Origin: an uncultured Pseudomonadota bacterium
GTDB taxonomy: Bacteria > Pseudomonadota > Alphaproteobacteria > JACZXZ01
DNA: 64,000 bases
Direction: 5' to 3'
Assembly (NCBI GenBank): GCA_963842155.1
Contig: CAWJFP010000034.1
Coordinates: 5,514 to 69,513, forward strand
Shown here piece after piece: positions 2,937-40,879 of this stretch (its first letter is position 1; every line of letters begins with the position of its first letter). The notes under the pieces were generated by a model. It ran no database searches. It had not been told where the DNA came from and was given only the letters and a program-made list of their open reading frames with translations. The translations under genes and the position numbers were made by a program.

Positions 2937-3009
2937 GGCCCCATCGTCTAGTGGCCAAGGACACCACCCTCTCAAGGTGGAGACACGGGTTCGAATCCCG
3001 TTGGGGCTG
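2937..3009 (+). tRNA. tRNA-Glu, anticodon CTC
   Basis: Cloverleaf read by eye: acceptor GGCCCCA/TGGGGCT (G1-U72 wobble), D-arm TCGTCTAGTGGCCAAGGAC, anticodon stem CCACC/GGTGG with loop CTCTCAA (anticodon CTC), T-arm ACGGG-TTCGAAT-CCCGT, discriminator G, no encoded CCA. Confidence 0.8.
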
Positions 3010-4909
3010 CGATAAACCTGCAGGTAAACGCCTTGAAATCCCATCGGGCGGGTAGGAAACGGGCCGATCTGCTACTCGAATTGCTACTGCCGCACAGCGG
3101 ACCACTACCGTCTGGGCAGATCACCAACCGGTAGGTAGGCGCAGTGCAAGGTCACGTCCGCCAACACGGCGAGAACAGCTGGGAGCTCCGGGTCTACGTC
3201 GGACGCGGACGCGACTACGAAGCGGGCGCGGTACAAGACGCGGACCTTCAAGGGCTCCAAGCGCGACGCCGACCGGGCCATCCGCGCCTTCCTGGCCGAG
3301 GTGGACCGAGGAGTCATCAGCGAGGGCACCTTCGGGGAGCTGCTCGAGCGCTGGTTCGAGGTGGCGTGGACGACGCGGGACTGGTCGCCCAAGGGCATCG
3401 CCGAGACGAGGCGGATCATCGACACCAGGCTCGGCGTCCTGTCGCCGATCACGCTCGACAAGCTCCGGACGCCGATCATCGACCGTTACTACGCGCAGCT
3501 GCGGACGCACGGTGGCGCCTGCGGACACCGGCCCCGTCAGTCGCACGACGGTGACCTGTGCGAGGTCGGCCACCCGCTCTCGACCGCCACCGTCCGTCGC
3601 ATACACGCCGTGATTCACTCGGTGCTCGAGCAGGCGGTCGCCTGGGACATGCTGATGTTCAATCCGGCGTCCAAGGCCTCGCCCGGGCGGATCGACTCTC
3701 CCGAGATCACGTCACCTGAGGTCGATGAAGTGCTCAAGCTGATTGCCGCGGCCCGGGAGACCGACCCGGATTTTCGCGGTTTATCTGGTTGTCTCGGCCG
3801 TGACCGGGGCGCGCCGGGGGAGATCTGCGCGCTCCGGTGGACCGACTTCGACAGCAGCAATGCGACGGTGCGTTTCGCCCGGGCCATCTCGATCGGGACG
3901 GAGGGTCCGGTGGAACGACAGAAGCCGAAGACCCGTTCCTCGGTTCGTACCGTGGCCCTCGATGCCGCCACCACATCCATCCTGGACGCGCACCGGGCGC
4001 GCTGTGCCGAACGGGCACTCGCCTGCGGTGTCCCATTGCCGAAGTCGGCCTTCGTGTTCTCCGACGAAGCCGACGGGTCGGCTCCGTGGCGGCCGGATTC
4101 GACTACCCGACGATTCGCGACTCTGCGCAAACGTTGCGGACTCGACAAGAGCATCCACCTCCACAGCCTCCGGCATTTCGTGGTGACGACCTTGCTGAAC
4201 GCGGGTGTCGAGCTTCCGGAGGTCGCCGGCCGAGTCGGCCACGGCGGAGGAGGAAGGACCACGCTCACCGTCTACTCCCACTTCAAACCGGCGAGGGACC
4301 GCCATGCGGCCGATTACCTCGGTCAGCTACTCGCTGTTCCCGACGGCGACAACGTCTAAGGGCCCTCGAATTCCGATAGGCGTGCAGCGAGCTCTCGATC
4401 GGGGCTGCCAAGGCGCTTGTAGAGAGGCCCGCATGGCGTCTCGCTCAAACGCAACGAGAGCATCAGAAGCGGCTGTTCGGGGGAATCGTCTCGGTACACC
4501 TGGCCGAGGTAACCGAACTCATTCATGACTCCCACCACACTGCGGTTAGCAGTCTTGGCCAGCCGCCATTCGCCCATTCCGGTCAACTCGGCGGCTATGA
4601 GGCTGGACTAGCTCAGTCCGCGTGCCAACACTTCTCCGAGGACTCTGAGAAGCGGGCAATGACAGTGGTCGCCGGAGCCAACGGGATGAGGATGGAAACA
4701 AGGTCGACTCGTTGACGAACAGGGCAACCTGGGGACGCCAGAAGAGGAAGTGGCGTACCAGTCGCCCAGGGCCGTGGTCGACCTCTCTTCAGTCTGATGA
4801 GGCTCGGTCTTGAGGCGATCGAGCAGTCGCTTCGTGCCGTGGACGATCAGCATCTGGCTTAGGGGCCGCCGGCTCACCGACTAGCCCGGCTCGGAGTCGT
4901 CGACAGAGG
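3010..4909 (+). mobile_element. Probable degraded integrative-element remnant: integrase next to the tRNA 3' end, followed by ~550 bp with no convincing gene and a truncated neighbouring gene
   Basis: Classic tRNA-then-integrase arrangement. The integrase is frameshifted. The adjacent lldD-like gene keeps only its N-terminal 140 codons. No attR repeat of the tRNA 3' end was found by eye. Confidence 0.35.
3144..4359 (+). pseudogene. int: Tyrosine recombinase / phage-type integrase with a frameshift near 3290
   Basis: The N-terminal frame has the integrase-type start (SWELRVYVGRGRD). The main frame (3301-4359) has the catalytic region HSLRHFVVTTLLNAGV...TVYSHF (HxLRH box, Tyr). A continuous reading needs a +1/-1 shift around 3290. 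Confidence 0.7.
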
Positions 4910-5332
4910 TCAGCGGGTGAGATCTCGCGCTGATCGGCTACGGCGCGGATCCATGCGATGGCCGCCAAGGCCGGCGGCATGGCCCGCGGCGATGACCTCG
5001 GCCATGGAGTGGCCGGACATGGAACTGAGGGTGAAGATCGTGCCTGCCTTTCCTGCCGCTCGCACGCCGGCGACGTCCCCGAGTGGATCCATCATCCGTG
5101 TGAATCCGACCGGGCTGAGGAGGACGGGCATCTCGAGCTTGCAGCCGAGGACAGAGGTTGCGAGATCGGGCGCCGGCACGCCCTTGGTGACTCCCATGCG
5201 GGGACGGAACTCGACGGCCTCGATCGACCTCCGGTTCGCCCGGATCGTGGACTCGGAGCCGGCGCCGCCGTCGATGTAGTCGAAGACCGCCCGTGGTAGT
5301 CGCCGCATCGCGAGACGGCGTGCGTCGCTCAC
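4910..5332 (-). pseudogene. N-terminal fragment (140 aa) of an FMN-dependent alpha-hydroxy-acid dehydrogenase (L-lactate dehydrogenase / glycolate oxidase family). The 3' two-thirds is absent
   Basis: AVFDYIDGGAGSESTIRANR...PVLLSPVGFTRMMDPLGDVAGVRAAGKAGTIFTLSSMSGHSMAEV matches the LldD/GOX N-terminus. The ORF ends after 140 codons and nothing downstream continues the family. Confidence 0.6.
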
Positions 5333-5493
5333 CGTCGCGATCCGCCGCCGCCACCCGAGTTTGCACGAGGTCTGTATAACGATCCCATCGTGACGCCATC
5401 ATCCGGCCAACAGTACGCCGGGGCCTGACCTCGACAGGCGCTCCCAGTTTCGGTTGCGCATTTCTTGAGTGGGTGAAAATCGTTTGCATGGAA

Positions 5494-5525
5494 CGGTTCA
5501 GTTTGGTAGAGTTTCGGTTGAACCG
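5494..5525. promoter_or_regulatory. Inverted repeat CGGTTCA-N18-TGAACCG in the divergent intergenic region upstream of the class-III aminotransferase-fold gene. A CCCGGC-TCCG-GCCGGG hairpin sits at 5531-5546 just before the RBS
   Basis: Read directly from the sequence. Operator-like, candidate site for the locus GntR regulator. Confidence 0.3.
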
Positions 5526-5566
5526 ATAGTCCCGGCTCCGGCCGGGCTCCTTCGGAGGAGGTTTCC

Positions 5567-6850
5567 TTGAGCGCCGAGATGATCGCCTTCGACTCCAAGA
5601 GCGACATGCTCGCCAAGTCGAAGGAGTTCTGGAACCCGGACAAGACCCAGTTCTGGATCGACTCCGGTGTTCCGCTCGTCATCGACCGGCGGGAGGAGTA
5701 CTTCATCTACGACGTCTCGGGCAAGCGCCTCATCGACGTCCACCTGAACGGCGGGACCTACAACCTCGGCCACCGCAATCCGGAGGTGGTGCAAGCCGTG
5801 ACTGCGGCCATGCAGCGCTTCGACATCGGGAACCATCACTTCCCGTCCCTCGCGCGGACCGCGCTCGCCGAGGCGCTCGTCGAAACGGCTCCGGCCAACA
5901 TCACCAAGGTCATCTACGGCAGCGGGGGAGGTGAGGCGATCGACATCGCACTCAAGACCGCCCGGCACACCACCCAGAAGCGCAAGATCGTCTCGATCGT
6001 GAAGGCCTACCACGGCCACACAGGACTTGCGGTGGCGACCGGCGACGACCGGTTCGCGGCGCTGTTCCTGGCAGACCGGCCCGAGGAGTTCCCACACGTC
6101 CCCTTCAACGACCTGCCGGCGATGGACGAGGCCCTTCGTGGCCGCGACGTGGCGGCCGTGATCATGGAGACGATCCCCGCGACCTACGGTTTCCCTCTCC
6201 CCGACCCGGGCTATCTCGAGGGTGTCAAGCGGCTCTGCGAGCGTCACGGTGCGCTCTACATCGCCGACGAGGTGCAGACGGGCCTGATGCGCACGGGCGA
6301 GCTCTGGGCGATCAGCAAGCACGGCATCGAGCCCGACATCCTGGTGACCGGCAAAGGGATCTCGGGTGGGCTCTACCCGATCTCCGCCGTCCTTGTCAGC
6401 GAGGCCGCCGCGGGCTGGCTGAGCGAGGACGGCTTCGGTCACATATCCACCTTCGGCGGGGCCGAGCTCGGGTGCGTGGCAGCCCTGAAGACCTTGGAGA
6501 TCACCTGCCGCCCCGAGACGCGCTCGATGGTCCACTACGTCTCCGACCTGATCGGCCGGGGCCTTCGCGCGATCCAGGACGTATATCCCGACTGGTTGGT
6601 CGGCATCCGCCAGAACGGTCTCGTGATGGGGCTCGAGTTCGCCCACCCCGAGGGCGCGAAGTACGTGATGAAGCACCTCTACGAAAACGGCGTATGGGCC
6701 ATCTTCTCGACCCTGGACCCCCGGGTGCTGCAGTTCAAGCCCGGCATTCTCATGACCCCCGAGCTCTCCGAGGAGCTGCTCGGCCGCACCGAGGTCGCGA
6801 TCGGCCAGGCCTGGCAGGATGTCCGCAGAGGCGGAAAGGTCGGGACATGA
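5567..6850 (+). CDS. Class-III aminotransferase-fold PLP enzyme. In RMM-type loci this fold is the 1-amino-2-propanol O-phosphate phospho-lyase. Starts at TTG
   Basis: 427 aa. DEVQTGLMRTGELWA and a GKGISGG lysine region typical of the class III family. RBS GGAGGAGG upstream. 4-bp ATGA overlap with the next gene. Confidence 0.8.
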   Translation: MSAEMIAFDSKSDMLAKSKEFWNPDKTQFWIDSGVPLVIDRREEYFIYDVSGKRLIDVHLNGGTYNLGHRNPEVVQAVTAAMQRFDIGNHHFPSLARTALAEALVETAPANITKVIYGSGGGEAIDIALKTARHTTQKRKIVSIVKAYHGHTGLAVATGDDRFAALFLADRPEEFPHVPFNDLPAMDEALRGRDVAAVIMETIPATYGFPLPDPGYLEGVKRLCERHGALYIADEVQTGLMRTGELWAISKHGIEPDILVTGKGISGGLYPISAVLVSEAAAGWLSEDGFGHISTFGGAELGCVAALKTLEITCRPETRSMVHYVSDLIGRGLRAIQDVYPDWLVGIRQNGLVMGLEFAHPEGAKYVMKHLYENGVWAIFSTLDPRVLQFKPGILMTPELSEELLGRTEVAIGQAWQDVRRGGKVGT

Positions 6851-8451
6851 CCGAGGTCGTGGTCGATCTCATGACCGAGCCCGCCGGCGTCCCCCGGGCG
6901 CGCGCCATGCTGGAGAGGGCCCAGTGGGCCGCGCTCGCGTTCTCCCGCTACGACAAGGGCACTGTCGACCGCATCGTCTCGGCTGCCGCTCGAGCGGGAG
7001 CCGCCAAGGCCCGGGAGTACGCGGAATGGGCGGTGCGGGAGACCGGTTACGGCGTGGTCGAGCACAAGGTGCTGAAGAACCTCTCTTGCAGCACCGGGCT
7101 TGTCGAGGCCTACCGGGACCATGACTACGTGTCGCCGCGCTTTGATCCGATGGCGAAGATCCTCGAGATTCCACGGCCGGCGGGCGTCGTCCTGGCGCTC
7201 ACTCCTTCGACGAACCCGGTAGCGACCGTGTTCTTCAAGGCGCTGCTCTGCCTGATGACCCGCAGCGTCGTCATCGTGAGCCCCCATCCGAAGGCCAAGG
7301 GCGTCTGCGCCGACGCGGCCCGCACCTTGGCGGAGGCCGCGGTCGAAGCCGGGGCGCCCGACGGGGCGATACAGGTCGTCGACGAACCTTCGGTGCCGTT
7401 GATCAACGCCCTCATGACCGACGACCGCACCGACGTCATCGTCGCCACCGGCGGCACGGCCGTGGTCCGGAGTGCCTACAGCTCGGGCACACCCGCTATG
7501 GGGGTCGGGCCCGGCAACGTTCCCGTGCTGGTCGACCAGACCGCGGATCTTGCCCTGGCGGCAAAGCGAATCGTGGACTCGAAGAGCTTCGACAACTCGA
7601 TCCTGTGCACGAACGAGTCGGTGCTCATCTGCGAGCAGCCCGCCCTCGACAACCTCGTGCGGCACCTGCACCGAGAAGGCGCCTACATGCTCGCCGACGA
7701 GGAGCGGGACCGAGTACGCCAGCTTCTCTTCCCCAACGGGTCCTTCGACTTGCGCTTCATCGGCAAGGATGCCGCCTCGATCGCCGCCGAGGCCGGCGTC
7801 CGCGTCGGCGGCAATACTCGAATCCTCGTTGCGCCCTTCGATCTCGTCGTTCCCGAAGAGCCATTGGCACACGAGAAGCTGTGCCCGGTCCTCGGTCTCG
7901 TCGCCGTACCGAGCATCGACCGCGGGATAGAGGCCGCCCGGGCGGTGCTGCGCATCTCCGGCCCCGGGCACTCGGCGGCCATCCACAGCACGAATCCGAG
8001 GACGATCATGGACTATGGCGCAGCGGTGAGGGTGCTCCGGGTCGTGGTGAACGCCGGCAACAGCCTCGGAAGCTCGGGGATCGAGACGAACCTTGCGCTG
8101 ACGATGACGGTCGGGACGGGTTACTTCGGGCGGTCCTCCATGGCCGAGAACCTGCAACCCAAGCATCTGACCCAGATGACCCAAGTGGCCTACAACGCAA
8201 GCGCGGATGAGCCCTTCGGCAACTTCGCCGGCCTCACGCCCTGGGAGCAGCCACACGGACACGTGCCGCCGTACCCGTACGCGTCGAACCTGGTGCCGGC
8301 GGACGCGGGCCGGATGCCGGCGCGTTCGGCCGCGCAGGTCGGCGCAAACGCGCCGCCCGCGCAGGAACAGGTGACGGCCGAGGTGGCTCTGCTCCGCGAG
8401 GAGATCCGACGGATGGTTCTCGAAGAGCTCAGCCTGATCGCGAAGCGGTAG
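6847..8451 (+). CDS. CoA-acylating aldehyde dehydrogenase (EutE/PduP-like, BMC type) with an ~80-aa C-terminal extension ending in an amphipathic helix
   Basis: 534 aa. ILCTNESVLI catalytic Cys region. The C-terminus reads ...EQVTAEVALLREEIRRMVLEELSLIAKR. Confidence 0.8.
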   Translation: MTEVVVDLMTEPAGVPRARAMLERAQWAALAFSRYDKGTVDRIVSAAARAGAAKAREYAEWAVRETGYGVVEHKVLKNLSCSTGLVEAYRDHDYVSPRFDPMAKILEIPRPAGVVLALTPSTNPVATVFFKALLCLMTRSVVIVSPHPKAKGVCADAARTLAEAAVEAGAPDGAIQVVDEPSVPLINALMTDDRTDVIVATGGTAVVRSAYSSGTPAMGVGPGNVPVLVDQTADLALAAKRIVDSKSFDNSILCTNESVLICEQPALDNLVRHLHREGAYMLADEERDRVRQLLFPNGSFDLRFIGKDAASIAAEAGVRVGGNTRILVAPFDLVVPEEPLAHEKLCPVLGLVAVPSIDRGIEAARAVLRISGPGHSAAIHSTNPRTIMDYGAAVRVLRVVVNAGNSLGSSGIETNLALTMTVGTGYFGRSSMAENLQPKHLTQMTQVAYNASADEPFGNFAGLTPWEQPHGHVPPYPYASNLVPADAGRMPARSAAQVGANAPPAQEQVTAEVALLREEIRRMVLEELSLIAKR

Positions 8452-8453
8452 CG

Positions 8454-9056
8454 ATGGCCGAGCTCCGATCGTTCATCTTTCTCGACCGGCTGCAACCGCA
8501 GACGATGTGCTATCTGGGCACCTGGATCCGCGGCAGCCTGCCCCGGAGCGACGTCGCCGCCCAGATCATCGAGATCGCGCCCGGGCTCGACATCGAGCCG
8601 CTCACCGACGTCGCGCTCAAGCACGCGGAGGTACGAGCCGGCATCCTCGTCGTCGAGCGACAGTTCGGCTACCTCGAGATCCACGGGAGCACCGACGAGG
8701 TGCGCGCGGCCGCGGCGGCGGTTCTCGAAGCGCTCGGAGCCACCGCACGCGAGGCCACGAGCCCCGAGATCCTCGCATCGAGGATCATCACGATGCTCGA
8801 TCCCCAGCACGCGTTTCTCATCAACCGCAACAAGATCGGCTCGATGGCGCTCCCGGGTGAGTCGCTCTTCGTTCTCGAGGTGCAGCCGGCGTCCTACGCC
8901 ATCCTTGCGGCGAACGAGGCGGAGAAAGCCGCTCAGGTCAAGGTCGTCGACTACCGGATGATCGGCGCGACCGGGCGCGTGTACCTGTCGGGTCGAGAGT
9001 CCGACGTGCGTCAGGCCGCGACCGCCGCCGAGACAGCCCTTGGGAGTCGGCGATGA
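8454..9056 (+). CDS. BMC shell protein with two BMC-like domains in tandem (BMC-T-like), intact
   Basis: Both halves align to the BMC-H core. DVALKHAEVRAGILVVERQFGYLEIHGSTDEVRAAAAAV and AILAANEAEKAAQVKVVDYRMIGATGRVYLSGRESDVRQAATAA compare with [39 protein letters not shown] of the adjacent BMC-H. Confidence 0.6.
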   Translation: MAELRSFIFLDRLQPQTMCYLGTWIRGSLPRSDVAAQIIEIAPGLDIEPLTDVALKHAEVRAGILVVERQFGYLEIHGSTDEVRAAAAAVLEALGATAREATSPEILASRIITMLDPQHAFLINRNKIGSMALPGESLFVLEVQPASYAILAANEAEKAAQVKVVDYRMIGATGRVYLSGRESDVRQAATAAETALGSRR

Positions 9057-9511
9057 GCGAGCCGTCTCAGACCCTCGACGACCTCCGGGCCCTCGTCCGC
9101 GAGGCTCTCGGCGAGGCGTTGCCCGAGCTGTGGAAGTCGGTGCCCGAGCCGCGGGGGCTGGCCCCCCGGTTCCCCTCGCAGGCGGCTGCGGCCGGCGAGG
9201 TCGAGACGGTCATGCTTCGCACCGACGCCGACCTGGCCTTGTTCGTGAGCCGTTTGCTGCATCTGTTCGAGAACCCGAAGCAGCGTGAGGACCTGCGGAC
9301 CGGTCGGCTGCGCTTCGGTTTCGCACCGGTTGCCGCGCCGGGCTCGTTCCAGCCCGTGCACCGCATTGAGAAGGGCGCGGTCACCGAGGCGACGGTCCGC
9401 GAAGCGGCCAGGTCTGGCGCGAAGATCGTTCTCGGTCCGAATGCCGTCCTCACGCCGCTCGGCCGCGACCGCGCCCGGGCCGAGGGCGTCCAAGTGGAGA
9501 AGGAGCACTGA
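9053..9511 (+). CDS. Hypothetical protein embedded among shell genes. N-terminal amphipathic helix (LDDLRALVREALGEAL) and a conserved-looking C-terminal motif (GAVTEATVREAARSGAKIVLGPNAVLTPLGRDRARAEGV)
   Basis: Translationally coupled on both sides (ATGA and TGATG overlaps). No family assigned with confidence. Confidence 0.5.
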   Translation: MSEPSQTLDDLRALVREALGEALPELWKSVPEPRGLAPRFPSQAAAAGEVETVMLRTDADLALFVSRLLHLFENPKQREDLRTGRLRFGFAPVAAPGSFQPVHRIEKGAVTEATVREAARSGAKIVLGPNAVLTPLGRDRARAEGVQVEKEH

Positions 9512-9798
9512 TGGTTACCGCGACCGTCGTCGGCAACGTCTGGTCCACCCGCCGGCTGAAGGAGATCCCAAACGGCGCCTTCCTCGAGGTCCAGCTCGAA
9601 GGCACCGGCAGCCGCCTTGTCGCATTCGACGTCCTCGGAAGCGGGATCGGAGAACGGGTGCTCGTCGCCCAGGGGTCGGTCGCCGCGGCCTGGTTCCCGG
9701 GCAAAGCGCCGCCCATCGACGCCTTGATCGTCGGATCCATCGACGTGGCCGCCGACCAGCCCCCGCGCCGCGCCCCAGCCCAGAAGCGAGGAGCCTGA
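9511..9798 (+). CDS. BMC vertex pentamer protein (BMC-P, EutN/CcmL family)
   Basis: MVTATVVGNVWSTRRL...VAFDVLGSGIGERVLVAQGSVAAAW...PIDALIVGSIDV is typical of PF03319. Confidence 0.75.
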   Translation: MVTATVVGNVWSTRRLKEIPNGAFLEVQLEGTGSRLVAFDVLGSGIGERVLVAQGSVAAAWFPGKAPPIDALIVGSIDVAADQPPRRAPAQKRGA

Positions 9799-9897
9799 CC
9801 CTCTCGTTCGACAGCGCAGCCGAGCGAGCCCCGATCCCCACTGCTGGAGGCAGCGGGCATTCCAACCAGAGATACGACCTCAAGACAGGAGAAAGAC

Positions 9898-10183
9898 ATG
9901 GCCAGCAACGCGATCGGCATGATCGAGACCAAGGGTTACGTCGCCACGCTCGCGGCGGCCGACGCCATGGTGAAGGCGGCGAACGTGACCATCGTGAGCC
10001 GGGACGAGGTGGGCGACGGTCTCGTCGCCGTCACCATTGTCGGCGACGTTGGTGCCGTGAAGGCTGCCACCGAGGCGGGCGCCGGAGACGGCCGGGAGCG
10101 TCGGTCAGCTCATTTCAGTGCACGTCATTCCGCGCCCGCATCCGGAGCTGAGCAAGCACTTCAAGGCCAGCGGGAGCGAATGA
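9898..10183 (+). pseudogene. BMC-H hexamer shell protein with a 1-nt insertion near 10084 (extra G in gccGgag)
   Basis: MASNAIGMIETKGYVATLAAADAMVKAANVTIVSRDEVGDGLVAVTIVGDVGAVKAATEAGA is the canonical PF00936 sequence. The canonical C-terminus ETAGSVGQLISVHVIPRPHPELSKHFKASGSE* is in the +1 frame. RBS AGGAGAAAG precedes the ATG. Confidence 0.75.
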
Positions 10184-10847
10184 ACGTGGCGGCGTCGGCT
10201 GCGTCGCCTCCACCGAGCCCGGAGCTTCGGGTCTATCTGCTCGTCCGTGACCTGCAGCGTCGGTTCGCGGCCTACATGGCGACGCCCACCCGGCACACGG
10301 CTACCCGCCGTTCGAGGGCGATGACACGCGCTCATCGTCGAGGTCGCGCCCGGTCTCGCCATCGAACGGGTCACGGACCTGGCCCTTCGCGCCGTGCCAG
10401 AGCGTCGAGCCGGGAATCTTGTTCGTCGAAAGGCAATTCGGTGTGCTCGAGATCCACGGGTCGGTTCTCGCGGACGTGGAACACGCCGGACAGGCGATCC
10501 TGCGACGGCCTGCACCGGACGCGGCAGACCAGCTGCGGCCGCGCACGCTCTACTCCGACGTGATCGAGGACGTCACTGACCAGCACGCCGTCATCATCAA
10601 CAGGAACCGTCAAGCTCAGATGGTGCTGCCCGGCGAGACCCTGCTCGTCCACGAGGTGACGCCGGCGCTGTTCGCCGCCGTGGCAGCGAACGAGGCCGAG
10701 CGCGCCGCACCCGACGTCGCACTCGTGGACGTGTCGATGATCGGCGTAGCGGGTCGCATCTACTTGAGCGGGCAGACTCAGGACGTGCTTGTGGCCCAGG
10801 AGCAGATCGCGGCCGTGCTCGGCTCGGTGGAGGGACGAGAACACTGA
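10180..10847 (+). pseudogene. Second tandem-BMC-domain shell protein, paralog of 8454-9056, interrupted by two frameshifts (near 10330 and near 10415)
   Basis: Three frames together reproduce the paralog: ELRVYLLVRDLQRRFAAYMATPTRH..., then ALIVEVAPGLAIERVTDLALRAVPERRAG, then ILFVERQFGVLEIHGS...AAVAANEAERAAPDVALVDVSMIGVAGRIYLSGQTQDV. Confidence 0.55.
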
Positions 10848-10869
10848 GCCACGAAGAGTCTGCGCCGGT

Positions 10870-11900
10870 TCATGACCTGTCCGCGGAGGGCGACGTCCTC
10901 GAGCGGGTCGACATCGGTCGCCCGGCTCGCCGTCGGGCGCTTCGACATCCACCCTGACTCGACCGTCGAGTTGCTGAACGTCTCGGAGAATGCCACCTAC
11001 CGCGTCGAGGACCCTCGAGAGGGCCCGAAGGCCCTGCCGCGTTCACCGGCTCGGTTACCACACCCGAGAGGAGATCGCTTCTGAGCTCGCCTGGATGGAC
11101 GCGCTTCGGGCCGAGGCCGGGGTCCGGACCCCACGGGTCGTGGTCGCCTCCAACGGCGACAGAGTCGTCGCCTTGACCGACGCCAGTAGTGGCGAGGAGC
11201 GTTATTGCGTGATGTTCGAGTTTCTTCCTGGTGTCGAACCGCTCGAACAGGACGTCGGGAGCTTCGAGGCACTCGGCGAGCTGACCGCGCGCATGCACCT
11301 GCACTCTCGGGGCTGGAACCGCCCGAGCGGCTTTCGCCCGGTTCCACTGGCACTACGAAGCAGCCTTTGGCGCCGAGAGCGCGTTGGGGACGGTGGCAGA
11401 AGGGCGTCGCCGTGGGAACCGAGGAGCGCGAAGTGCTCGGTCGGCTCGACGAGACCCTGAAGCGGCGGCTTCGAGCCTACGGTGCCGGCCCCGAGCGTTA
11501 CGGCCTCGTGCATGCCGACACGCGCCTTGCGAACCTGCTTGTCGACGACGGGGCGGTCAGCGTCATCGACTTCGACGACTGTGGCTTCAGCTGGTACCTC
11601 TACGATCTCGGGACGACTGTGAGCTTCTTCGAGCACCGGCCGCAGGTACCCGAGCTGGTGGACAGCTGGCTGCGCGGTTACCGGAGGTTGGCGGAGGTAT
11701 CGCCCGAGGACGAAGCCGAGATCTGGACCTTCATCATGTTCCGGCGGCTCCTCCTCGTTGCCTGGATCGGCTCGCACAGCGCCGTCGAGATCGCACGCGA
11801 GCTCGGAGCGGGCTACACCCTCGACGAGCTGCGACCTCGCCGAGAGCTACTTGAGCCGGTTCGGCTGACGAGTCACCACCACGGGCCGGCAGGCCCGAGG
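10870..11900 (+). pseudogene. APH-family (aminoglycoside-phosphotransferase-fold) kinase, the expected amino-propanol kinase of an RMM locus, split over at least three frames. Exact start and stop unresolved
   Basis: Fragments across frames: LLNVSENATYRVEDP, then VHRLGYHTREEIASELAWMDALRAEAGVRTPRVV...LTARMHLHSRGWNRPSGF, then YGLVHADTRLANLLVDDGAVSVIDFDDCGFSWYLYDLG (the HxD...D catalytic and Mg-binding motifs). Confidence 0.65.
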
Positions 11901-11919
11901 CCGCAGCAAGGAGGCAAGT

Positions 11920-12718
11920 GTGTTCAAACCACTCGACGGACGAAGCGTCGTCGTGACCGGCGCGCACCCGCGGCATAGGGAAGGGAATCGCCCGGGTCTT
12001 CACGCGCGCCGGTACCCGGGTGCTCCTCGTCGGGCGAGACGAGCAGGCGGCCCGACGGCGCTGTGGAGGAGCTGTCGGTCGAGGGCGAGGTCTCCTACGT
12101 GCTGGCTGACGTCGCTCACCGTGCGGACTGTGAACGCATCGCCGCGACGGCGATCGAGCGTCACGGTGGCATCGACGTGCTCTGCGCGAACGCAGGGATC
12201 TTCCCCGCCCAGCGCCTGGCGGAGATGACCGAGGAAGGGATCGACGAGGTGCTCGGCACCAACCTGAAGGGCTGCATCCTGTCGGTGCAGGCATGCGTTC
12301 CGGCCCTCGCAGCGCTCCGGACACGGCCGGGTGATCCTCACGTCCTCGATCACCGGCCCGATCACCGGCTTCCCCGGCTGGGCGCACTACGGTGCCACCA
12401 AGGCCGGCCAGCTCGGGTTCATGCGAACGGCGGCGATCGAGCTCGCCAGGAGCGGCATCACGGTCAACGCCCTCATGCCGGGCAACGTCGTCAGCGAAGG
12501 CCTCGATCGAGCTCGGCGAGGCCTACGCGGCCTCGATGAAGGCGTCGATCCCGCTCGGAAGGCTCGGCACGGTCGACGAGGTCGGCTACACGGCGCTGTT
12601 CCTCGCCACCGACGAGGCCGCCTACATCACGGGACAGGCGATCGTCGTCGACGGCGGACAGGTGCTGCCCGAGTCGCTGGCAGCGCTCGGAGGTCTGAGC
12701 GCGTCGGAAGCGCCGTGA
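11920..12718 (+). pseudogene. Short-chain dehydrogenase/reductase, the expected aminoacetone / 1-amino-2-propanol dehydrogenase, with about four frameshifts. GTG start
   Basis: Pieces in three frames: MFKPLDGRSVVVTGA, then SYVLADVAHRADCERIAATAIERHGGIDVLCANAGI, then [50 protein letters not shown] (YxxxK), then [37 protein letters not shown]. Confidence 0.65.
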
Positions 12719-13500
12719 ACCTTCGGCGCGAGCGCCCGCCGAGGGTCACGCCGTGCTCTGCCTCGTGTCCCGGCATCGACGCGGGCGACCTGCGACCGGG
12801 CGAGCGGCTCGGGTCAGAGCGCGATCTCGCTGAGTCCCTCGGTGTGAGCCGGTCGACGTTGCGTCAGGCCCTCGGAGCGCTGAACGACGAGGGGGTCGTC
12901 CGGCGAGTCCCGGGCAGAGGCGGCGGCACCTTCGTCAGCCAGTCGAAGATCGAGCGGGACCTGTCCCGCATCGTCGGGCTGCCCACGATGCTGCGTTCGC
13001 AGGGCGTCACGGCAGGGACGAGGGTCGTCAAGGCCGGCCTGACGGCAGCCGACGAGGCGGTTGCCAAAGAGCTCGGCCTGCGGGTCGGTGCGCTCGTCGT
13101 GAGCCTCGTCAGGATCAGGCTGGCCGACGGGAGCCCCATCTCGGTCGAGCACGCCACGCTACCTGCGGACAGGTTCCCGGGCCTGCTCGAGCTCCCGCTC
13201 GGAGGGTCGGTGTACGAGCTGCTCGAGGACCACTACGGGACTCGGCCGGGCGAGGCCGTCGAGCGCATCGAAGTGGTTCCCGCGTCGTCTGAGGAGAGTG
13301 CGATTCTCGGCGTCGCGCCGGGAGTGCCGCTGCTTTCGATAACAAGGACCACAGTTGACGAAGACGGCAGCCCGATCGAATACTCACATGACCTCTTCCG
13401 GGCCGAGCGCACCCGTATCGTCGTGCGCAGCCCGGGCGGCTCGATCACCCGGGCAGGCCTGAACGCCGGGGCGGGTGGTCGAGCACAAGAGGACGAAAGG
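12716..13500 (+). CDS. GntR/HutC-family transcriptional regulator (HTH plus UTRA domain). No in-frame stop before the next gene, so the C-terminus is unresolved
   Basis: [50 protein letters not shown] (GntR HTH), then a UTRA-like region ending ...[18 protein letters not shown]. The frame runs on into the following ORF. Confidence 0.55.
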
Positions 13501-13521
13501 GACGAAACAGGAGGTGCACAG

Positions 13522-14943
13522 ATGACGTTCGATCGCCAAGGCGTGCCGCTGACTGGGACCGAAGAAGCCGTCGGCCATTTCGACGCCGCGGTCTCCGCGC
13601 TGTTGTACTTCCGCCCCGAAGTCGGGGTCGAGACGGCCCGAGCGCTCGAGGTCGAGCCCGACCTCCCGATGGGGCGCGCCCTCGGGGGATATCTCGGAGT
13701 GCTCGGGACAGAGCCGGACGATGTGGCGTCGGCACGCGAGAGCCTCGGTGCGTGGCTGGGCAATGTGGACCGGTCCGGCTTTCACGACCGGGAACTGCGC
13801 CACCTCGCGGCCGTGACGGCTTGGCTCGGGGGTGACATGCTCGGCTGTGGCCAGCTGCTGCAGGAGGTCTCGGATCTGTATCCCCGTGACGTCCTCGCAC
13901 TTGCCGTCGGTCATCAGATCGACTTCTTCACGGGGAACGCGACGAGCCTGCGAGACCGCGTCGCCGGCGTGCTCACGGCGTGGTCGCCCGAAGACGAGCA
14001 CTACTCGCTCGTGATGGGGATGTTCGCGTTCGGTCTCGAAGAGGCCGGTCACTACGACCGGAGCGAGGACGTCGGGCGGGAGGCGGTCGAACGCAACAGC
14101 GAAGGACGTCTGGGGGATCCATGCGGTCGTTCACACTTTCGAGATGCAGGGCCGTTTCGGCGAGGGACTCCGCTACTTCGACGAGCGTGTCGGCGACTGG
14201 TCGACGGGCAACTTCTTCAACGTCCACAATTGGTGGCACTACTGCATCTACTCGCTGGAGGCGGGACGTCCCGACGTCGCGATGCGCATCTTCGACAGCG
14301 TTCTGCACAAGGACGACTCAGATGGTCTCGTGATGGAGATGCTCGACGCGTCGTCGCTGCTGTGGCGGCTCTACCTCGACGGGGCAGACGAGTCGGCGAG
14401 GTGGGCCAGCCTCGCCGACGGTTGGGATCCGAAGATGAAGACGGCCCATTACGCCTTCAACGACATGCACGCCGTGATGACATACGTGGGTGCCGGCCAG
14501 AATCGACAAAGCAGACGCGCTGATCGCCGACCGCTGCGCCTATCTCGATTCTGCGCAAGGCATTGAGAGCAATTTCATGTTCACCCGCGAGGTCGGCATG
14601 CCGGTCTGCCGGGCGATCGTGTCATTCGGGAAGGGCCGCTATGGCGAGGTGATGGATCTGCTGCTCCCGATCCGAAAGCGGATCAATCTCTTCGGGGGCA
14701 GTCACGCGCAGCGCGACACGGTGCAACGCACCCTCGTCGAGGCGCGCCCTGCGCGCCCAGCGGAGCGGGGTCGCCCGTGTTCTGCTGAGCGAGCGGATCG
14801 GCTTGAAGCCGACAAGCCCTTACAACTGGCTTACCGAAGCCAGGCTTCTCGACCAGCTCGGAGCCTCCGCCGCGGCTGCCGCCGCCATCGAGCGGGCAAC
14901 CGAGCTGCGAGCCGGGGCGGACGCCCGCTTTGCCGCCGTCTAG
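13522..14943 (+). pseudogene. TTC38-like tetratricopeptide-repeat protein, four frames needed for a full reading (shifts near 14105, 14500 and 14740)
   Basis: ATG with a perfect [39 protein letters not shown]... continues as ...[41 protein letters not shown]..., then ...[32 protein letters not shown]..., then ...ALRAQRSGVARVLLSERIGLKPTSPYNWLTEARLLDQLG...ARFAAV*. Confidence 0.5.
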
Positions 14944-14992
14944 GTGCCAACTGACGACCGCGGCCGGGCTCGGCGTCAACGCCTGTGCAACC

Positions 14993-15724
14993 ATGAAGCC
15001 CGTGAGCGGAAGCGGGTCCGGGACCGAGCGCACTATCGAACCGGTGGAGCACGCTCCTGTCTACGGGCTCGTCGTCGAGCACATCAGACGGGCCATTCAC
15101 ATCGGGAGCTTCGTTGCAGGCGACAAGCTTCCGCCGGAACGGGAGCTCGCCAAGCAGCTCAACGTTTCGAGGACCACCGTCCGGGAAGCCATACGCGTGC
15201 TCGAGGGCGAGGGCTATCTGGAGACCCGTCGAGGAGCGACTGGCGGTGTGCTCGTGCTCGACCGCGGGCAGGCCGAAGAGCGTCTCGCCCCGCTTATCCG
15301 GGCCCGGCTCGGTGAGCTCGAGCAGATCATCGACTTTCGTTTGGCGGTCGAGTGCAGCGCCACGCGACTCGCAGCGATCCGCCGCAGCGATGAGGATCTC
15401 GAGCAGCTCCAAGGCGCGTATCGGACGATGGAACAAGGTTGGGAGACGCGGCGGTTCCGAGCTGCTGACTCCGCCTTCCATCTGGGGATCGCCGAAGCGG
15501 CCGGAAACGAGTGGATGCGGAAGGGGATCGAGAACGCACACGTTGCGATCTGGGTTCCGGTCGACGTCATTACCGACAACGTGTTCCGGACGGCCCAGCT
15601 GCACCATGCCCAGATCCTCTCTGCAATCCGCGATCGGGACACGGACGCGGCCGAACAAGCGGTCGCGGCACACATCGAGACGACCCGCGCCGACCTTTAC
15701 AAGATCGCCGCCGCGACCACCTGA
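14993..15724 (+). CDS. GntR/FadR-subfamily transcriptional regulator (HTH plus FCD domain)
   Basis: VYGLVVEHIRRAIHIGSFVAGDKLPPERELAKQLNVSRTTVREAIRVLEGEGYLETRRGATGGVLV, then an all-alpha FCD-like C-terminus. Confidence 0.7.
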   Translation: MKPVSGSGSGTERTIEPVEHAPVYGLVVEHIRRAIHIGSFVAGDKLPPERELAKQLNVSRTTVREAIRVLEGEGYLETRRGATGGVLVLDRGQAEERLAPLIRARLGELEQIIDFRLAVECSATRLAAIRRSDEDLEQLQGAYRTMEQGWETRRFRAADSAFHLGIAEAAGNEWMRKGIENAHVAIWVPVDVITDNVFRTAQLHHAQILSAIRDRDTDAAEQAVAAHIETTRADLYKIAAATT

Positions 15725-15832
15725 GCGTCGCTTGACAGTCGAGGCGATCGGTCCAAGAATCGGACCATCGGCACGGATCCGCAGGTCGAAGCCCTCCTGA
15801 ACGAGCTTGTTGCGGCGGCTCGGCCGTCGAGC

Positions 15833-16717
15833 ATGACACTTCCCCTTCTCGAGGGCCGCGAGAACTTCAGGGAACTTTTCGTCTCGATGGCGGAGCCGAA
15901 TGCCTGGGGGACCAGCGAGGACCGCACGATCCCGGGCCCGAGCGGCCCGATCCCGGTGCGCGTGTTCCGGGCTCCCGACTCCGCTGTCCGGCCTCTCGTC
16001 GCGTTCTTCCACGGCGGCGGTTGGGTATTCGGCGACCTCGACTCATATGACTCGATGTGCCGGAGCCTTGCACGCGGCGCCGAGGCGATCGTGGTCTCGG
16101 TCGACTACCGGCTCGCGCCCGAGCACCCGTTCCCTGCCGGGTTCGAGGACTGTTACTCCGTGACGCGCTGGCTGGCCTCGAATGGGCAGGAGATCGGAGG
16201 CGATCCGTCCCGTGTCGCGGTGGCCGGCGACAGCGCGGGTGGGAACCTCGCAGCTGCGGTGGCGCTGCGAGCCCGCGACTCCGGGGATGTCAGTCTCCGC
16301 TTTCAGCTGTTGATGTACCCGGCGCTCGACCCGCGTATGACCTCGCCGTCTTACAAGGAGCATGGAGATGACCCTTTTCTGTCCAAGGCCGAGATGGAGT
16401 GGTCCTGGCCCCGGTATCTGGGCGACGGCGGGGGCGAGCCCGACCCTTATGCAGCCCCGGCATACGCCCATGACCTGTCCGGGTTGGCTCCTGCCCTCGT
16501 CATCGTCGCGGGCCAGGATCCTCTCCGTGACGAGGGCCTGATCTACGCAAATCGGCTCGAGCAGGCCGGCGTTCCGGTCGAGCTCAGCCGTTATGACGAC
16601 ATGGTGCACGGATTCTTCTCTTTTACCCGGGCGCTCGCTGTCGCAAGACGCGGTCTCGAGGAGGCTGGCGAACGCCTCGGCCGATCCCTCGCCTCGGCCG
16701 ATCGCTCGTCTAATTGA
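15833..16717 (+). CDS. Alpha/beta hydrolase of the hormone-sensitive-lipase / esterase family
   Basis: HGGGWVFGD oxyanion motif, GDSAGGNL nucleophile elbow, C-terminal DxxH. Confidence 0.75.
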
Positions 16718-16744
16718 GTGCTCGCCGATGCGAAAGGTGAAGAC

Positions 16745-17524
16745 ATGACCGACGACGGCCGTCTGCACGGCAAGGTGGCGATAGTCACCGGAGCCGCTTC
16801 GGGGATCGGGCAGGCGATCGCGAACCGGTTTCTCGACGAAGGCGCGTTCGTCGTCGCGGCCGATCGTGACGAGGCGGGCCTGGCCAGGAGCAATCTCGCT
16901 GCCAACCCTCTGGCAAGAACCACGGTCGCCGAAGTGACCAACCCCGAGCACGCCGAGGCGACGGTCGCGTTCGCGACCGGCGAGTTCGGTTCGCTCGACA
17001 TCCTCGTCAACAGCGCCGGGATCGTCCGCTACTCGGAGCTGTTCGATCTCTCCCTCGAGGAGTGGGATGAGGTTCAGCGGGTGAACGTGACCGGGACCTT
17101 CCTCTTCAGCCAGGCGGCGGCTCGGGTGATGATCGCTCGTCCGTCGCCGGCCGGAGCCACCCGGAGCGTGATCAATCTCGCCTCCATCGAGGCGATCGCC
17201 GTGCTCGCGAGCTCCGGTCACCCGCAGGTCCACTACAACGCGTCCAAGGGTGCCGTGCGGATGCTGACCAAAGCGCTCGCGGTCGAGCTCGGCCGCCATG
17301 CGATTCGCGTGAACTCCATCTGCCCCGGGGTCACCGAGACGCCGTTGACGGCAGCCGGGCTGAGCGACCCTGCCCGGCGCGGGTGGTTCATCAACCAGAT
17401 ACCGCTGGGTCGCCTGGGCCGGCCCGAGGACATCGCCGGCGCCGCGTTGTTCCTCGCCTCGGACGACTCGGCCTGGGTGACCGGTGCTGACTTGGTCGTG
17501 GACGGCGGTTATCTCACTCAATAG
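16745..17524 (+). CDS. Short-chain dehydrogenase/reductase
   Basis: VAIVTGAASGIGQAI (TGxxxGxG), NASKGAV (YxxxK region), C-terminal GADLVVDGGY. Confidence 0.75.
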   Translation: MTDDGRLHGKVAIVTGAASGIGQAIANRFLDEGAFVVAADRDEAGLARSNLAANPLARTTVAEVTNPEHAEATVAFATGEFGSLDILVNSAGIVRYSELFDLSLEEWDEVQRVNVTGTFLFSQAAARVMIARPSPAGATRSVINLASIEAIAVLASSGHPQVHYNASKGAVRMLTKALAVELGRHAIRVNSICPGVTETPLTAAGLSDPARRGWFINQIPLGRLGRPEDIAGAALFLASDDSAWVTGADLVVDGGYLTQ

Positions 17525-17541
17525 GAAGGTGACCGAAAGCG

Positions 17542-18750
17542 ATGAGAACGGTCCCTGAGAACTTCGGTCATCACGGAGGCGACCTCGACACGATCTTCAG
17601 CGCCTACCGGGAGCTCCGCGCGACCTGCCCGGTCGGGAAGAGCCAGCGTTACGGGGGTTTCTGGTTCCTCACGAGGTACGAGGACATCTGGAGCGCGGAG
17701 CAGAATCCCGATGTTTTCTCCGTCGCGCAGGGCATGCTCCTGCCGTCGCTCGGCAACGAGCGGCCGTTGATACCGCTCGATATCGACCCCCCCGCACTCC
17801 AGCACTACCGCCGGATGCTGCTTCCCGCGTTTGCGCCCGCCCGGATCGCCCGGCTCGAGCCGTTCGTACACGGTGTGGCCGAGAGCCTGGCCGATGCCTT
17901 CGCCGCGGACGAGGTGTTCGATGCCAGCCTGTCCTACGCACGCATCTTGCCGATGATCGTGTTCGCCGAGATGGCCGGCCTGCCGAAAGAGGACTACGAC
18001 CGTTTCCAGAACTGGGTCGAGCGCATGCTCTACGGTCGCACCGAGGACCCGGCGGATGCCGTCGAAGCCGCAAAGGAGGTGGATGCCTACTTCCGGGATC
18101 TGAGGCGCAAGCGCCTCGATGAGCCCGAGCGAGACGATCTCCTCGGAAATCTTCTTGCCGGGCGCGTCGAAGGTCGGCCGCTCAGTGAGGATGAGTTCGC
18201 GGATTACTGTTTGTTGTTGCTGGTGGCGGGCTTGGAGACCTCGGCGTGGTCGATCCGCTCGGCCCTCTGGTATCTCGCGCAGCATCCCGAGGACCGGCGC
18301 CGGCTCGTGTCACAACCCGACCTGATGGTCGCGGCGACCGAGGAGTTCCTTCGTTGTCTCGCACCGGTCCAGGGAATGGCGAGAACCTTGACTCACGACG
18401 TGGCCCTGCGAGGCCAAGCCCTCCGTACCGGCGACAGGGTGCTGCTGCTGTTGGGCTCCGGCAACCGCGACGAGGAGGTTTTCACCGATGCTGACGAGGT
18501 GATAATCGACCGGGTCGACAATCCCCACCTCGCCTTCGGGATAGGGGCGCATCGATGCCTCGGTTCGAACCTCGGCCGCCGAGAGGTGCGGGTCGGCCTC
18601 GAGGTCCTGCTCCGGCGCGTCCCGCAGTTCGAGCTTGTCGACCCCGATGTGCCGTGGTGGGGCCTCGGGCCCCTGCCGCTGCGGCGGTGTGATGCGTCGC
18701 CAGCCTTACGGGCTACCGGGGCCTCGACTCGGCCGGCGCCTCGTGCCTAG
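17542..18750 (+). CDS. Cytochrome P450 monooxygenase
   Basis: 402 aa. FGIGAHRCLGSNLGRREV heme-thiolate loop, EEFLRCLAPV (ExxR) region. Confidence 0.85.
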   Translation: MRTVPENFGHHGGDLDTIFSAYRELRATCPVGKSQRYGGFWFLTRYEDIWSAEQNPDVFSVAQGMLLPSLGNERPLIPLDIDPPALQHYRRMLLPAFAPARIARLEPFVHGVAESLADAFAADEVFDASLSYARILPMIVFAEMAGLPKEDYDRFQNWVERMLYGRTEDPADAVEAAKEVDAYFRDLRRKRLDEPERDDLLGNLLAGRVEGRPLSEDEFADYCLLLLVAGLETSAWSIRSALWYLAQHPEDRRRLVSQPDLMVAATEEFLRCLAPVQGMARTLTHDVALRGQALRTGDRVLLLLGSGNRDEEVFTDADEVIIDRVDNPHLAFGIGAHRCLGSNLGRREVRVGLEVLLRRVPQFELVDPDVPWWGLGPLPLRRCDASPALRATGASTRPAPRA

Positions 18751-18761
18751 GGAGACCTGAG

Positions 18762-18956
18762 ATGAAGGTCACGGTCGATCCTGAGCGCTGCCAGGGCCAC
18801 AATCGTTGTCACGTGCTGGTGCCCGAGATCTTCGACGTCGACGAGCTCGGCTATGCCGTCGTCACGATCCCCGAGGTGCCCGAGCACCTTGTCTCCCGAG
18901 TTCTCGAGGCGGCGCGTAACTGCCCGGAGCGGGCGATCGCAACAGATCAGCCCTGA
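18762..18956 (+). CDS. Small ferredoxin, partner of the P450
   Basis: 64 aa. MKVTVDPERCQGHNRCHVLVPEIFDVDE...ARNCPERAI is a Fdx-type Cys pattern, immediately 3' of the CYP. Confidence 0.7.
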   Translation: MKVTVDPERCQGHNRCHVLVPEIFDVDELGYAVVTIPEVPEHLVSRVLEAARNCPERAIATDQP

Positions 18957-18962
18957 TTGGGG

Positions 18963-18996
18963 TGCGCCGGGCGGCCGGCGGGTGTTTCGAATTTCG
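18963..18996 (+). terminator. Candidate intrinsic terminator after the ferredoxin: CGCCGG-gcgg-CCGGCG followed by GTGTTTCGAATTTCG
   Basis: Perfect 6-bp GC stem with a tetraloop and a T-rich tail 9 nt after the stop. Confidence 0.35.
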
Positions 18997-19080
18997 CTCA
19001 AACTTGCCTCGGCAAAACATTGCAGTCGCAATATTTTCCAGAGGGTGCGTCACGAACACTGAAGGAGGAGTTCGTTTCAT

Positions 19081-19800
19081 GGCCCGGAGGTTCCCGGACT
19101 GCCCCTTCGAGCGCTACGCCGACGATGCTGTCGTGCACTGTGTGAACAGGCACCAGGCCGAAGAGGTGCTTTCGGCCATCGCCGAGCGGATGGGAGAGGT
19201 GGGCTTAAAGCTGCACCCGGACAAGACGCGGATCGTCTACTGCAAAGACGGTGCGCGCCGTGGGCACAACGAGCACACCTCGTTCACCTTCCTTGGTTAC
19301 ACCTTTCGGACACGGGAGGCGGTCAACCCCGGGAACGGGGTGCACTTCACCGGTTTCCTGCCTGCGATGAGCACCGAGGCGCTCAAGGCCAAAGGGGCAG
19401 AGCTGCGTGCCATGCGGATACACCGGCACACTGGCTCGTCCCTAGATGACCTCGCCCAATGGCTGAACCCCATAGTCAGGGGATGGATGACCTACTACGG
19501 CCGGTTCTACCGGTCGGCGATGGCTCCCCTCCTGCAGCGTGTCAATTCCTACCTGAGGCGCTGGGCCGGGAAGAAGTATCGGCGACTGCAGACCTACAGG
19601 AGCTTCAAGCGGTGGTGGACCGGACTGGTCGATCGACAGCCCGGTCTGTTCGCCCAGTGGCGCTGGGTCCGTGCGGTCTGACTTGCAGACCGATGAGAAG
19701 AGCCCGGTGACGGGAGACTGTCACGCCGGGATCTGTGGGAGCCGGGGGCTGAGATGCCCCCGGCCACCCGACCAAGTGCGGGCGCGGGCGTTTTTTTAAA
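19081..19800 (+). mobile_element. Group II intron 3' remnant: an N-terminally truncated intron-encoded protein (begins at the YADD motif, then thumb/X maturase domain, 19081-19681) plus a downstream domain-V-like hairpin GAGCCGGGGGC-tgagat-GCCCCCGGCC
   Basis: MARRFPDCPFERYADDAVVHC (RT domain 5 with YADD)...LNPIVRGWMTYYGRFYRSAMAPLLQRVNSYLRRWAGKKY (maturase X-domain signature). RT domains 0-4 are absent. A GC hairpin starting with G-AGC-C lies ~65 nt after the stop. Confidence 0.55.
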
Positions 19801-19856
19801 GTTGGCAACGGTGCTGGGGGCCATTCAACAGGGCCGCCGTAAACCACAAGCATCGC

Positions 19857-22690: not shown

Positions 22691-22787
22691 GTCAGTGGCC
22701 TCCTTCCTCCTATGTCTGCCGCTGGCGTGTCCGACGCCCGGAGCCTGCAACCGCGACGATGCCCTCAGCTCCGTCTACTCCCCACGG

Positions 22788-40331: not shown

Positions 40332-40349
40332 CGAAAGGAGAGGCGAACC

Positions 40350-40646: not shown

Positions 40647-40879
40647 GCCAGAGAGGGTTCAGTCGAATCCCCGTAAACCGGCAAGTGACGGGAGGTAAAA
40701 CCGGGGCGCTCATGGATACCCGCACCCAGCACCGCGACCGGGGACGAGCCGATGCGCGATATTGCCCCGCAATTACAGCGTTTCCCATAGTACGATTTCA
40801 AGGCTGACGGCATGAGCACCGGGTTGGTCGCCAGGCTGAATGCTCCGATGCGGTCATTTTTTCCTGACAGCAAGGTGCG

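Follow-up and report, generated by a model that had tools for sequence, protein, structure and literature searches.

Frameshifts in a Rhodococcus/Mycobacterium-type microcompartment locus: probable assembly errors in an intact gene set

Is a microcompartment locus with several of its genes out of frame a locus in decay, or an intact one that has been misassembled? The question is raised by eleven closely packed genes, all on the + strand, at positions 5567 to 14943 of a 64,000-nucleotide (nt) stretch of DNA from an uncultured bacterium (assembly GCA_963842155.1, contig CAWJFP010000034.1, positions 5,514 to 69,513), which we refer to as the window. The genes are predicted to encode a bacterial microcompartment (BMC) of the Rhodococcus/Mycobacterium microcompartment (RMM) type, also known as the aminoacetone utilisation microcompartment (AAUM). 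A first-pass annotation had described the locus as partly decayed or freshly pseudogenised, and had also named the alternative, that the assembly contains many errors in just this part of the contig. It is the alternative that the indel spectrum, the evidence on selection and the comparison with long-read assemblies favour. With a probability of about 0.83, we read the locus as an intact one of the RMM1/AAUM type in which some 20 insertions and deletions (indels) at 9.8 to 14.75 kb are consensus errors of the assembly and not biological decay. The genes downstream of the shell gene for BMC-P are most probably intact in the organism.

Gene content and relationship to the Mycobacterium smegmatis system

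Related loci were retrieved with the aldehyde dehydrogenase (AldDH) of the locus as query, and the order of ten genes was scored across the 42 that were obtained. Four close relatives recur below. L001 and L002 are long-read MFD metagenome-assembled genomes (MAGs), labelled Acidimicrobiaceae and about 81% identical to the window in nucleotide sequence; L043 and L044 are JGI metagenome contigs, taken here as short-read assemblies. The gene set claimed in the first-pass annotation was found in full and in place on the + strand, and comprises the following open reading frames (ORFs), the broken ones given with their full extent.

5567-6850, +: class-III aminotransferase-fold enzyme, the RMM signature enzyme; PF00202 at 1.6e-71; intact
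6847-8451, +: CoA-acylating AldDH of the EutE/AdhE-N type; PF00171; intact
8454-9056, +: BMC-T1, a shell protein of the double-stacking tandem BMC type, MSM0275 orthologue; PF00936; intact
9053-9511, +: hypothetical protein of 152 amino acids (aa), conserved in RMM loci; intact
9511-9798, +: BMC-P, the vertex pentamer, MSM0273 orthologue; PF03319 at 3.8e-19; intact
9898-10183, +: BMC-H, the hexamer, MSM0272 orthologue; PF00936 positions 1-62 of 75 in the raw ORF; broken by an extra C at 10082
10180-10847, +: BMC-T2, MSM0271 orthologue; the corrected protein matches the NCBIfam CcmP-like family at 1.6e-59; five indels
10868-11868, +: APH-fold kinase, orthologue of the M. smegmatis (S)-1-amino-2-propanol kinase; PF01636 in two ORF pieces; five +1 events
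11920-12718, +: short-chain dehydrogenase/reductase (SDR), orthologue of the M. smegmatis 1-amino-2-propanol dehydrogenase; corrected stop codon at 12696-12698
12703-13462, +: GntR/HutC-type regulator (winged helix-turn-helix plus UTRA); PF07702 at 3.6e-41 and PF00392 at 3.5e-16
13522-14943, +: TTC38-like tetratricopeptide repeat protein, whose UniRef homologues are named 'Tetratricopeptide repeat protein 38'; three +1 events

All five of the families PF00936, PF03319, PF01636, PF00202 and PF00171 were matched in proteins of the locus. Matches to solved structures were obtained with phmmer against PDB, for which BMC-H, BMC-T2, the kinase and the SDR were entered as frame-corrected proteins.

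BMC-T1: 5L39, 'RMM microcompartment shell protein MSM0275', top match, 2.9e-95 over residues 1-197
BMC-P: 5L37 (MSM0273), top match, 6e-38
BMC-H: 5L38 (MSM0272), 7e-41, second after 6NER, an engineered BMC-H tandem-fusion construct
BMC-T2: 5SUH (MSM0271), top match, 3e-91
Kinase: 6EF6, top match, 2.8e-92 over residues 13-330 of 331; next match at 1e-19
SDR: 6CI9 (8.7e-92), 6CI8 and 3PK0, top matches, at about 1e-91; generic FabG proteins no better than 1e-46

The four shell proteins, the kinase and the SDR match M. smegmatis RMM proteins one to one, which bears out the earlier RMM assignment. Synteny with MSMEG_0269-0277, the comparison suggested in that annotation, likewise holds, as collinearity judged by best PDB match and not by alignment to the M. 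smegmatis genome: the window genes from BMC-T1 through the hypothetical gene, BMC-P, BMC-H, BMC-T2 and the kinase to the SDR run as MSM0275-(0274)-0273-0272-0271-(0270)-(0269), with descending tags. The kinase and the SDR are those that we take to correspond to M. smegmatis tags 0270 and 0269. The order aminotransferase, AldDH, BMC-T, hypothetical protein, BMC-P, BMC-H, BMC-T, kinase, SDR, GntR is kept in about 38 of the 42 related loci, most of which come from uncultured Actinomycetota.

In protein complement and order the locus equals the M. smegmatis RMM/AAUM locus (MSMEG_0268-0277), with which it further shares the class-III aminotransferase-fold enzyme, the EutE-like AldDH, the GntR regulator and, between the T and P shell genes, a gene for a small hypothetical protein. 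It differs in its host lineage, in the absence of a permease from the contig-like 19-kb block in which the locus lies (4968-23992, see below), in the TTC38-like gene that follows the regulator, in the moderate identity of the proteins and in an aminotransferase-fold enzyme that has no solved RMM counterpart.

The RMM1 type was first defined from Mycobacterium and Rhodococcus only, and comprises an aminotransferase, an AldDH without phosphotransacylase (PTAC) or alcohol dehydrogenase (AlcDH), a phosphotransferase, an SDR, a GntR regulator, hydrolases and a permease (Axen et al. 2014, PMC4207490). With RMM1 as described there and by Sutter et al. (2021, PMC8217296) the window shares the enzymes, the regulator, the double-stacking BMC-T, nearby hydrolases (Abhydrolase_3 at 15833-16717 and Abhydrolase_1 at 19857-20669) and the lack of a diol dehydratase, whereas the listed permease is missing from its block. 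Among the ORFs of 4968-23992 we found neither PTAC nor AlcDH and no diol dehydratase; no amino-acid (GabP-type) permease was present among the ORFs examined there, and one may lie elsewhere in the genome. The RMM2 type has the same syntenic core from aminotransferase to regulator but adds diol dehydratase genes, which the block 4968-23992 does not contain, and RMM2 is therefore excluded. Phage integrases adjoin RMM2 loci in phylum outliers (Sutter et al., PMC8217296); the window has an integrase too (3301-4359), but the block with homology to the relatives does not include it. The Aut BMC, for 1-amino-2-propanol/1-amino-2-propanone utilisation (Ravcheev et al. 2019, PMC6620236), is the same cluster under another name. 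It has been reported in Actinobacteria, Firmicutes and Proteobacteria (PMC6620236), which fits the wide spread among the loci collected here. Full RMM-type cores were also seen in L034, a MAG with the label Rhodospirillales (46-81% identity), and in L038, which is labelled Bifidobacterium breve, a doubtful label for such a locus.

Taken as a functional-looking locus of the RMM1/AAUM type, the gene set is well supported by these comparisons. The type proposed in the first-pass annotation (Rhodococcus/Mycobacterium) stands; the lineage does not, since the nearest relatives carry Acidimicrobiaceae or Acidimicrobiales labels and the host resembles an Acidimicrobiia-like actinobacterium.

We adopt the kinase/phospho-lyase route that Mallette and Kimber reportedly put forward for M. 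smegmatis in 2018. By analogy with the M. smegmatis orthologues, the SDR would interconvert aminoacetone and (S)-1-amino-2-propanol, and the APH-fold kinase would phosphorylate the amino alcohol. Inside the shell, the aminotransferase-fold enzyme would act as a phospho-lyase that releases propionaldehyde, ammonia and phosphate, and the EutE-like AldDH would convert the propionaldehyde to propionyl-CoA, with expression presumably controlled by the HutC-type GntR regulator. Ravcheev and colleagues propose another route, in which a transaminase leads to lactaldehyde and then to lactyl-CoA (PMC6620236); a transaminase route of this kind is a possible alternative for the window.

Distribution of the frame-breaking indels

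The first five genes (5567-9798) are single uninterrupted ORFs, as had been noted before, and all later genes need frame changes in order to be read. When the coding frame of the window was followed in a plot of third-position GC (GC3), it switched repeatedly inside genes from BMC-H onward. The individual sites were placed by three-way and five-way alignments of the window with L001, L002, L043 and L044.

9799, 9879 and 9892: three 1-nt events in the spacer between BMC-P and BMC-H
BMC-H: one event, +1 at 10082
BMC-T2: five events, -1 at 10292, +2 at 10323, +1 at 10399, +1 at 10502 and -1 at 10515
Kinase: five events, +1 at 10910, 11037, 11332, 11380 and 11826
SDR: four frame-breaking events, +1 at 11963, 12057, 12310 and 12507; a further -2 at 12692 alters only the C-terminal tail
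GntR: +1 at 13456, which abolishes the stop codon and fuses the raw ORF to the TTC38 ORF; the N-terminal region at about 12702-12772 is disturbed
TTC38-like gene: three events, +1 at 14098, 14499 and 14744
9799-14744: the indel-rich patch as a whole, with about 24 window-specific indels of 1-2 nt, or about 1 per 200 nt, starting right after the BMC-P stop codon

From 10082 to 14744, six genes thus carry about 20 frame-breaking indels in their coding sequence, against zero in 5567-9798. Of roughly 27 window-specific indels in the 19-kb block whose length is not a multiple of three, about 24 fall within these 4.9 kb (binomial P of about 1e-11). The shift counts given in the first-pass annotation were right for BMC-H (one) and the SDR (about four); BMC-T2 has five and not two, the TTC38-like gene three and not four, and the kinase, for which at least three had been counted, has five. 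GntR, with its lost stop codon and disturbed N-terminus, is affected as well, beyond the genes of that count.

Upstream of the patch, the aminotransferase-fold enzyme is 92-94% identical to its counterparts in L001, L002, L043 and L044 in a single frame, and its stop codon overlaps the AldDH start. Within the patch, removal of a single base from BMC-H yields a protein whose C-terminal 30 aa are identical to those of L001.

Assembly error weighed against decay

The indels are of few kinds: 16 of +1, one of +2, two or three of -1 and one of -2, with nothing longer, which makes 17 insertions against about 4 deletions. Some 11 of the 16 inserted bases are unlike both of their neighbours and are therefore not products of slippage. 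Homopolymer error or slippage was considered as a source and rejected, because the indels do not lie in runs of at least three. In bacteria, substitutions outnumber indels about tenfold, and pseudogenes show a deletion bias. Some 20 neutral indels would then be expected to bring about 100-200 substitutions in 4.7 kb, an excess in nonsynonymous divergence (dN) of 0.02-0.04 and several nonsense codons. The spectrum of natural decay, with its deletion bias, size range and slippage contexts, was not seen among the window indels.

These expectations bear on the most obvious rival, a genuine and very recent pseudogenisation in which the pathway is unused and the distal half of the operon, from BMC-H to TTC38, is accumulating frameshifts. 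The indels do, after all, stand in the available sequence, where six genes in a row are broken by them; truncated genes lie nearby (an FMN-dependent dehydrogenase and a group II intron reverse transcriptase fragment), and an integrase is found 1.2 kb upstream. In order to compare selection between branches, dN and synonymous divergence (dS) were obtained for the window, L001 and L002 by a three-taxon Nei-Gojobori decomposition with bootstrapping, in which 1590 corrected codons were pooled for the broken genes.

Broken genes, dN: window 0.040, L001 0.042, L002 0.050
Broken genes, dN/dS: window 0.118, L001 0.139, L002 0.148
Intact genes, dN/dS: window 0.069, L001 0.076, L002 0.094

On the window branch the broken genes show an excess dN of 0.001 (bootstrap 95% confidence interval -0.016 to +0.0135), so that the excess of 0.02-0.04 expected under pseudogenisation lies above the upper bound of what is observed. 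The frame-corrected proteins are 83-100% identical to those of the relatives, with 0 internal stops in the 1590 codons. Neither a raised dN/dS nor a nonsense codon, the signs of relaxed selection, was found on the window branch in these codons when compared with L001 and L002; dN and dN/dS of the broken genes equal those of the sister branches. The bias towards insertions, and towards insertions that slippage does not explain, runs opposite to the deletion bias of pseudogenes. Furthermore, an abandoned pathway should decay evenly, yet its upstream half (4.2 kb) is without any event, and the nearby truncations coincide exactly with the ends of a block that resemble contig joins. We therefore regard recent pseudogenisation as unlikely.

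Further evidence comes from the related assemblies. In L043 and L044, all 11 genes are recovered as single full-length high-scoring segment pairs. Sporadic frameshifts occur in the equivalent genes of MFD long-read MAGs (six in L039, four in L042, three in L032, two in L001, and others), and none of this kind were found in the related MAGs whose contig names mark them as short-read assemblies. The MFD MAGs are Nanopore-only assemblies made with Flye and one round of Medaka, and their authors point to errors associated with Nanopore data where coverage is lower (PMC12313526). One kinase column, 11380, holds an extra base in both the window (C) and L001 (A, at about 14540) and none in L002, L043 or L044. 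A context-dependent error of base calling or consensus may reasonably explain such a shared column, for which independent mutation would be a poor explanation.

Frame errors also occur in the window at a distance from the locus. Window-specific +1 events lie at 21813, in an AllG/DUF1116-like gene, and at 23872, in a glutamine-synthetase-like gene. An HpnG-like phosphorylase is frameshifted at about 27660, where PNP_UDP_1 positions 41-100 and then 119-200 are matched in different frames, and so is oligoendopeptidase F at about 42990, where Peptidase_M3_N is followed in another frame by Peptidase_M3 180-456. The last two, which are a minimum count, show that frame errors occur at a low background level in the remainder of the window. 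Other switches reported by a frame-HMM over the whole window only marked normal boundaries between genes (HpnE-like/apt, pntAA/pntAB/pntB and glcD/glcE). The description of the locus as partly decayed or freshly pseudogenised is not sustained, given no signs of relaxed selection, the insertion bias and the similar indels both in long-read MAGs and elsewhere in the window.

A different biological origin was also weighed, namely resynthesis of one tract of about 5 kb by a polymerase prone to errors and frameshifts, for instance in break or gap repair, which would have left a shower of +1 frameshifts without substitutions that was sampled early. The tight clustering of the events, their sharp edges (9799-14744), the predominance of +1 changes and the lack of excess substitutions are all as such a tract would have them. 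However, like +1 events occur singly far outside it (21813 and 23872) and in independent long-read MAGs, and a cell in which six operon genes had been destroyed at once must have been sampled almost immediately. No bacterial process is known to us that inserts single non-templated bases (+1) at a rate of about 0.5% per base while leaving substitutions virtually absent. Resynthesis is thus, in our judgement, the most improbable of the explanations considered; if true, it would represent a bacterial analogue of clustered hypermutation that gives indels and not base changes.

The preferred explanation, consensus error, also agrees with the structure of the surrounding contig. The homology to all four close relatives is bounded inside genes by blastn and defines a single unit.

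4968-23992: contig-like 19-kb block that contains the locus and is homologous to L001, L002, L043 and L044

At the left, homology to all four begins exactly at 4968, inside the gene for the FMN-dependent dehydrogenase (FMN_dh 1-108 of 350). At the right it ends at 23992, where a glutamine-synthetase-like gene without its N-terminal domain abuts an HpnE-like Amino_oxidase gene (151-441 of 443). L001 and L002 are collinear with the window over 4968-18243. Tetranucleotide composition switches at about 24 kb, and the part from 24 to 64 kb differs from that at 4-24 kb. This suggests that contigs were joined at the block ends, or a chimera formed there, in a fragmented assembly, and the 24-64 kb part of the window may come from another organism. 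In a contig-like unit of about 19 kb that is joined to unrelated sequence on both sides, local consensus errors are to be expected, and their source would be a stretch of this block that was poorly polished, had low coverage or was filled with long reads.

Several points weigh against the reading of an intact RMM1/AAUM locus with consensus errors. The error density of the patch, about 5 per kb, is far above the level of about 0.05-0.2 per kb elsewhere in the window. The neighbourhood contains genes that are truly truncated (FMN_dh, the group II intron reverse transcriptase and the glutamine-synthetase-like gene), so that some real disruption is possible. The artefact is one that we infer from sequence comparison. 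No second assembly from this species was found, the closest relatives being about 81% identical: exact look-ups of three intact window proteins gave no entry, a scan of genome contigs with the AldDH gave a top match of about 86-88% amino-acid identity, and the TTC38-like protein gave top matches of 81% in metagenomes and 80-81% in a protein database search. L043 and L044 were used as accurate outgroups in place of such an assembly. With regard to function, the PDB matches of the aminotransferase-fold enzyme were generic class-III transaminases only, with no solved phospho-lyase at the 1e-40 cutoff; its NCBIfam matches were likewise generic transaminases, and its predicted phospho-lyase role draws on the M. 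smegmatis literature.

Accessory features, surroundings and implications

Inspection of the individual proteins revealed further features of the locus. The closest NCBIfam models of the AldDH are those for acetaldehyde dehydrogenase (acetylating), matched at 2e-111, which is under the family cutoff. The protein carries a C-terminal extension of about 80 aa that consists of a Pro-rich linker and a terminal amphipathic helix; the tail, read from the translation, is ...VTAEVALLREEIRRMVLEELSLIAKR, and the helix is a putative encapsulation peptide. The hypothetical protein at 9053-9511, which had zero matches in Pfam, NCBIfam and PDB, sits between BMC-T1 and BMC-P in 38 of the 42 loci. It has an N-terminal helix of the encapsulation-peptide kind, joined by a variable linker to a C-terminal domain that is conserved, and the helix, which is similar to the AldDH tail, can also be read as a putative encapsulation peptide. 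The kinase gave a weak match to NCBIfam NF004800, a 972-aa profile named 'aminotransferase', over profile positions 34-304 only. If this profile represents a kinase-aminotransferase fusion, it would be a weak Rosetta-stone pointer to consecutive action of the kinase and the aminotransferase-fold enzyme.

Among the loci compared, the TTC38-like gene adjoins the RMM core only in the window, L001, L002, L043 and L044. It had been counted as part of the locus, and now appears to be a clade-specific neighbour outside the conserved core.

In six of the related loci (L003, L004, L007, L014, L015 and L018, at about 4800-8450), a glutamine-synthetase-like gene and an alpha/beta hydrolase gene lie directly upstream of the RMM aminotransferase in divergent orientation; in L004 this upstream group also has a luciferase-like monooxygenase and an SDR. 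The window homologues of the two genes are found at 19857-23918 on the - strand, 5-9 kb downstream of the locus. Genes of this kind could have an accessory role in the pathway, such as gamma-glutamylation of the amine.

To the left of the block lie a tRNA-Glu(CTC) gene (2937-3010) and, after it, a gene for a tyrosine recombinase/phage integrase (3301-4359), which ends 1.2 kb upstream of the locus. No homologue of the integrase was present in any related locus. When an integrase-borne island was considered, no attR-like copy of the 3' end of the tRNA-Glu gene, as a repeat of at least 14 nt, was found within the window. A 5'-truncated group II intron occupies 18962-19772 and retains the C-terminal part of the reverse transcriptase (RVT_1 143-205) and the GIIM maturase domain; Rfam Intron_gpII is matched at 19698-19772, and the insert, of about 0.9 kb, is absent from the matching place in L043. 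Farther along the window, an islet of low GC content (56% compared with 68%) at 40053-41848 has two small ORFs (40053-40331 and 40350-40646) that by eye resemble a toxin-antitoxin pair of the HigB/HigA type. They are followed by a 322-aa protein without assigned function at 40880-41848.

Anyone who took the window at face value would list it as a decaying microcompartment, with half of its genes annotated as fragments or pseudogenes, and the case therefore calls for caution. Read as an intact locus, it would extend a type first defined in Mycobacterium and Rhodococcus, whose ten-gene core is also found in Acidimicrobiia-like bacteria and in many uncultured Actinomycetota of soil and sediment. 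The sub-clade to which the window belongs would have acquired the TTC38-like neighbour and is without the permease that usually lies adjacent.

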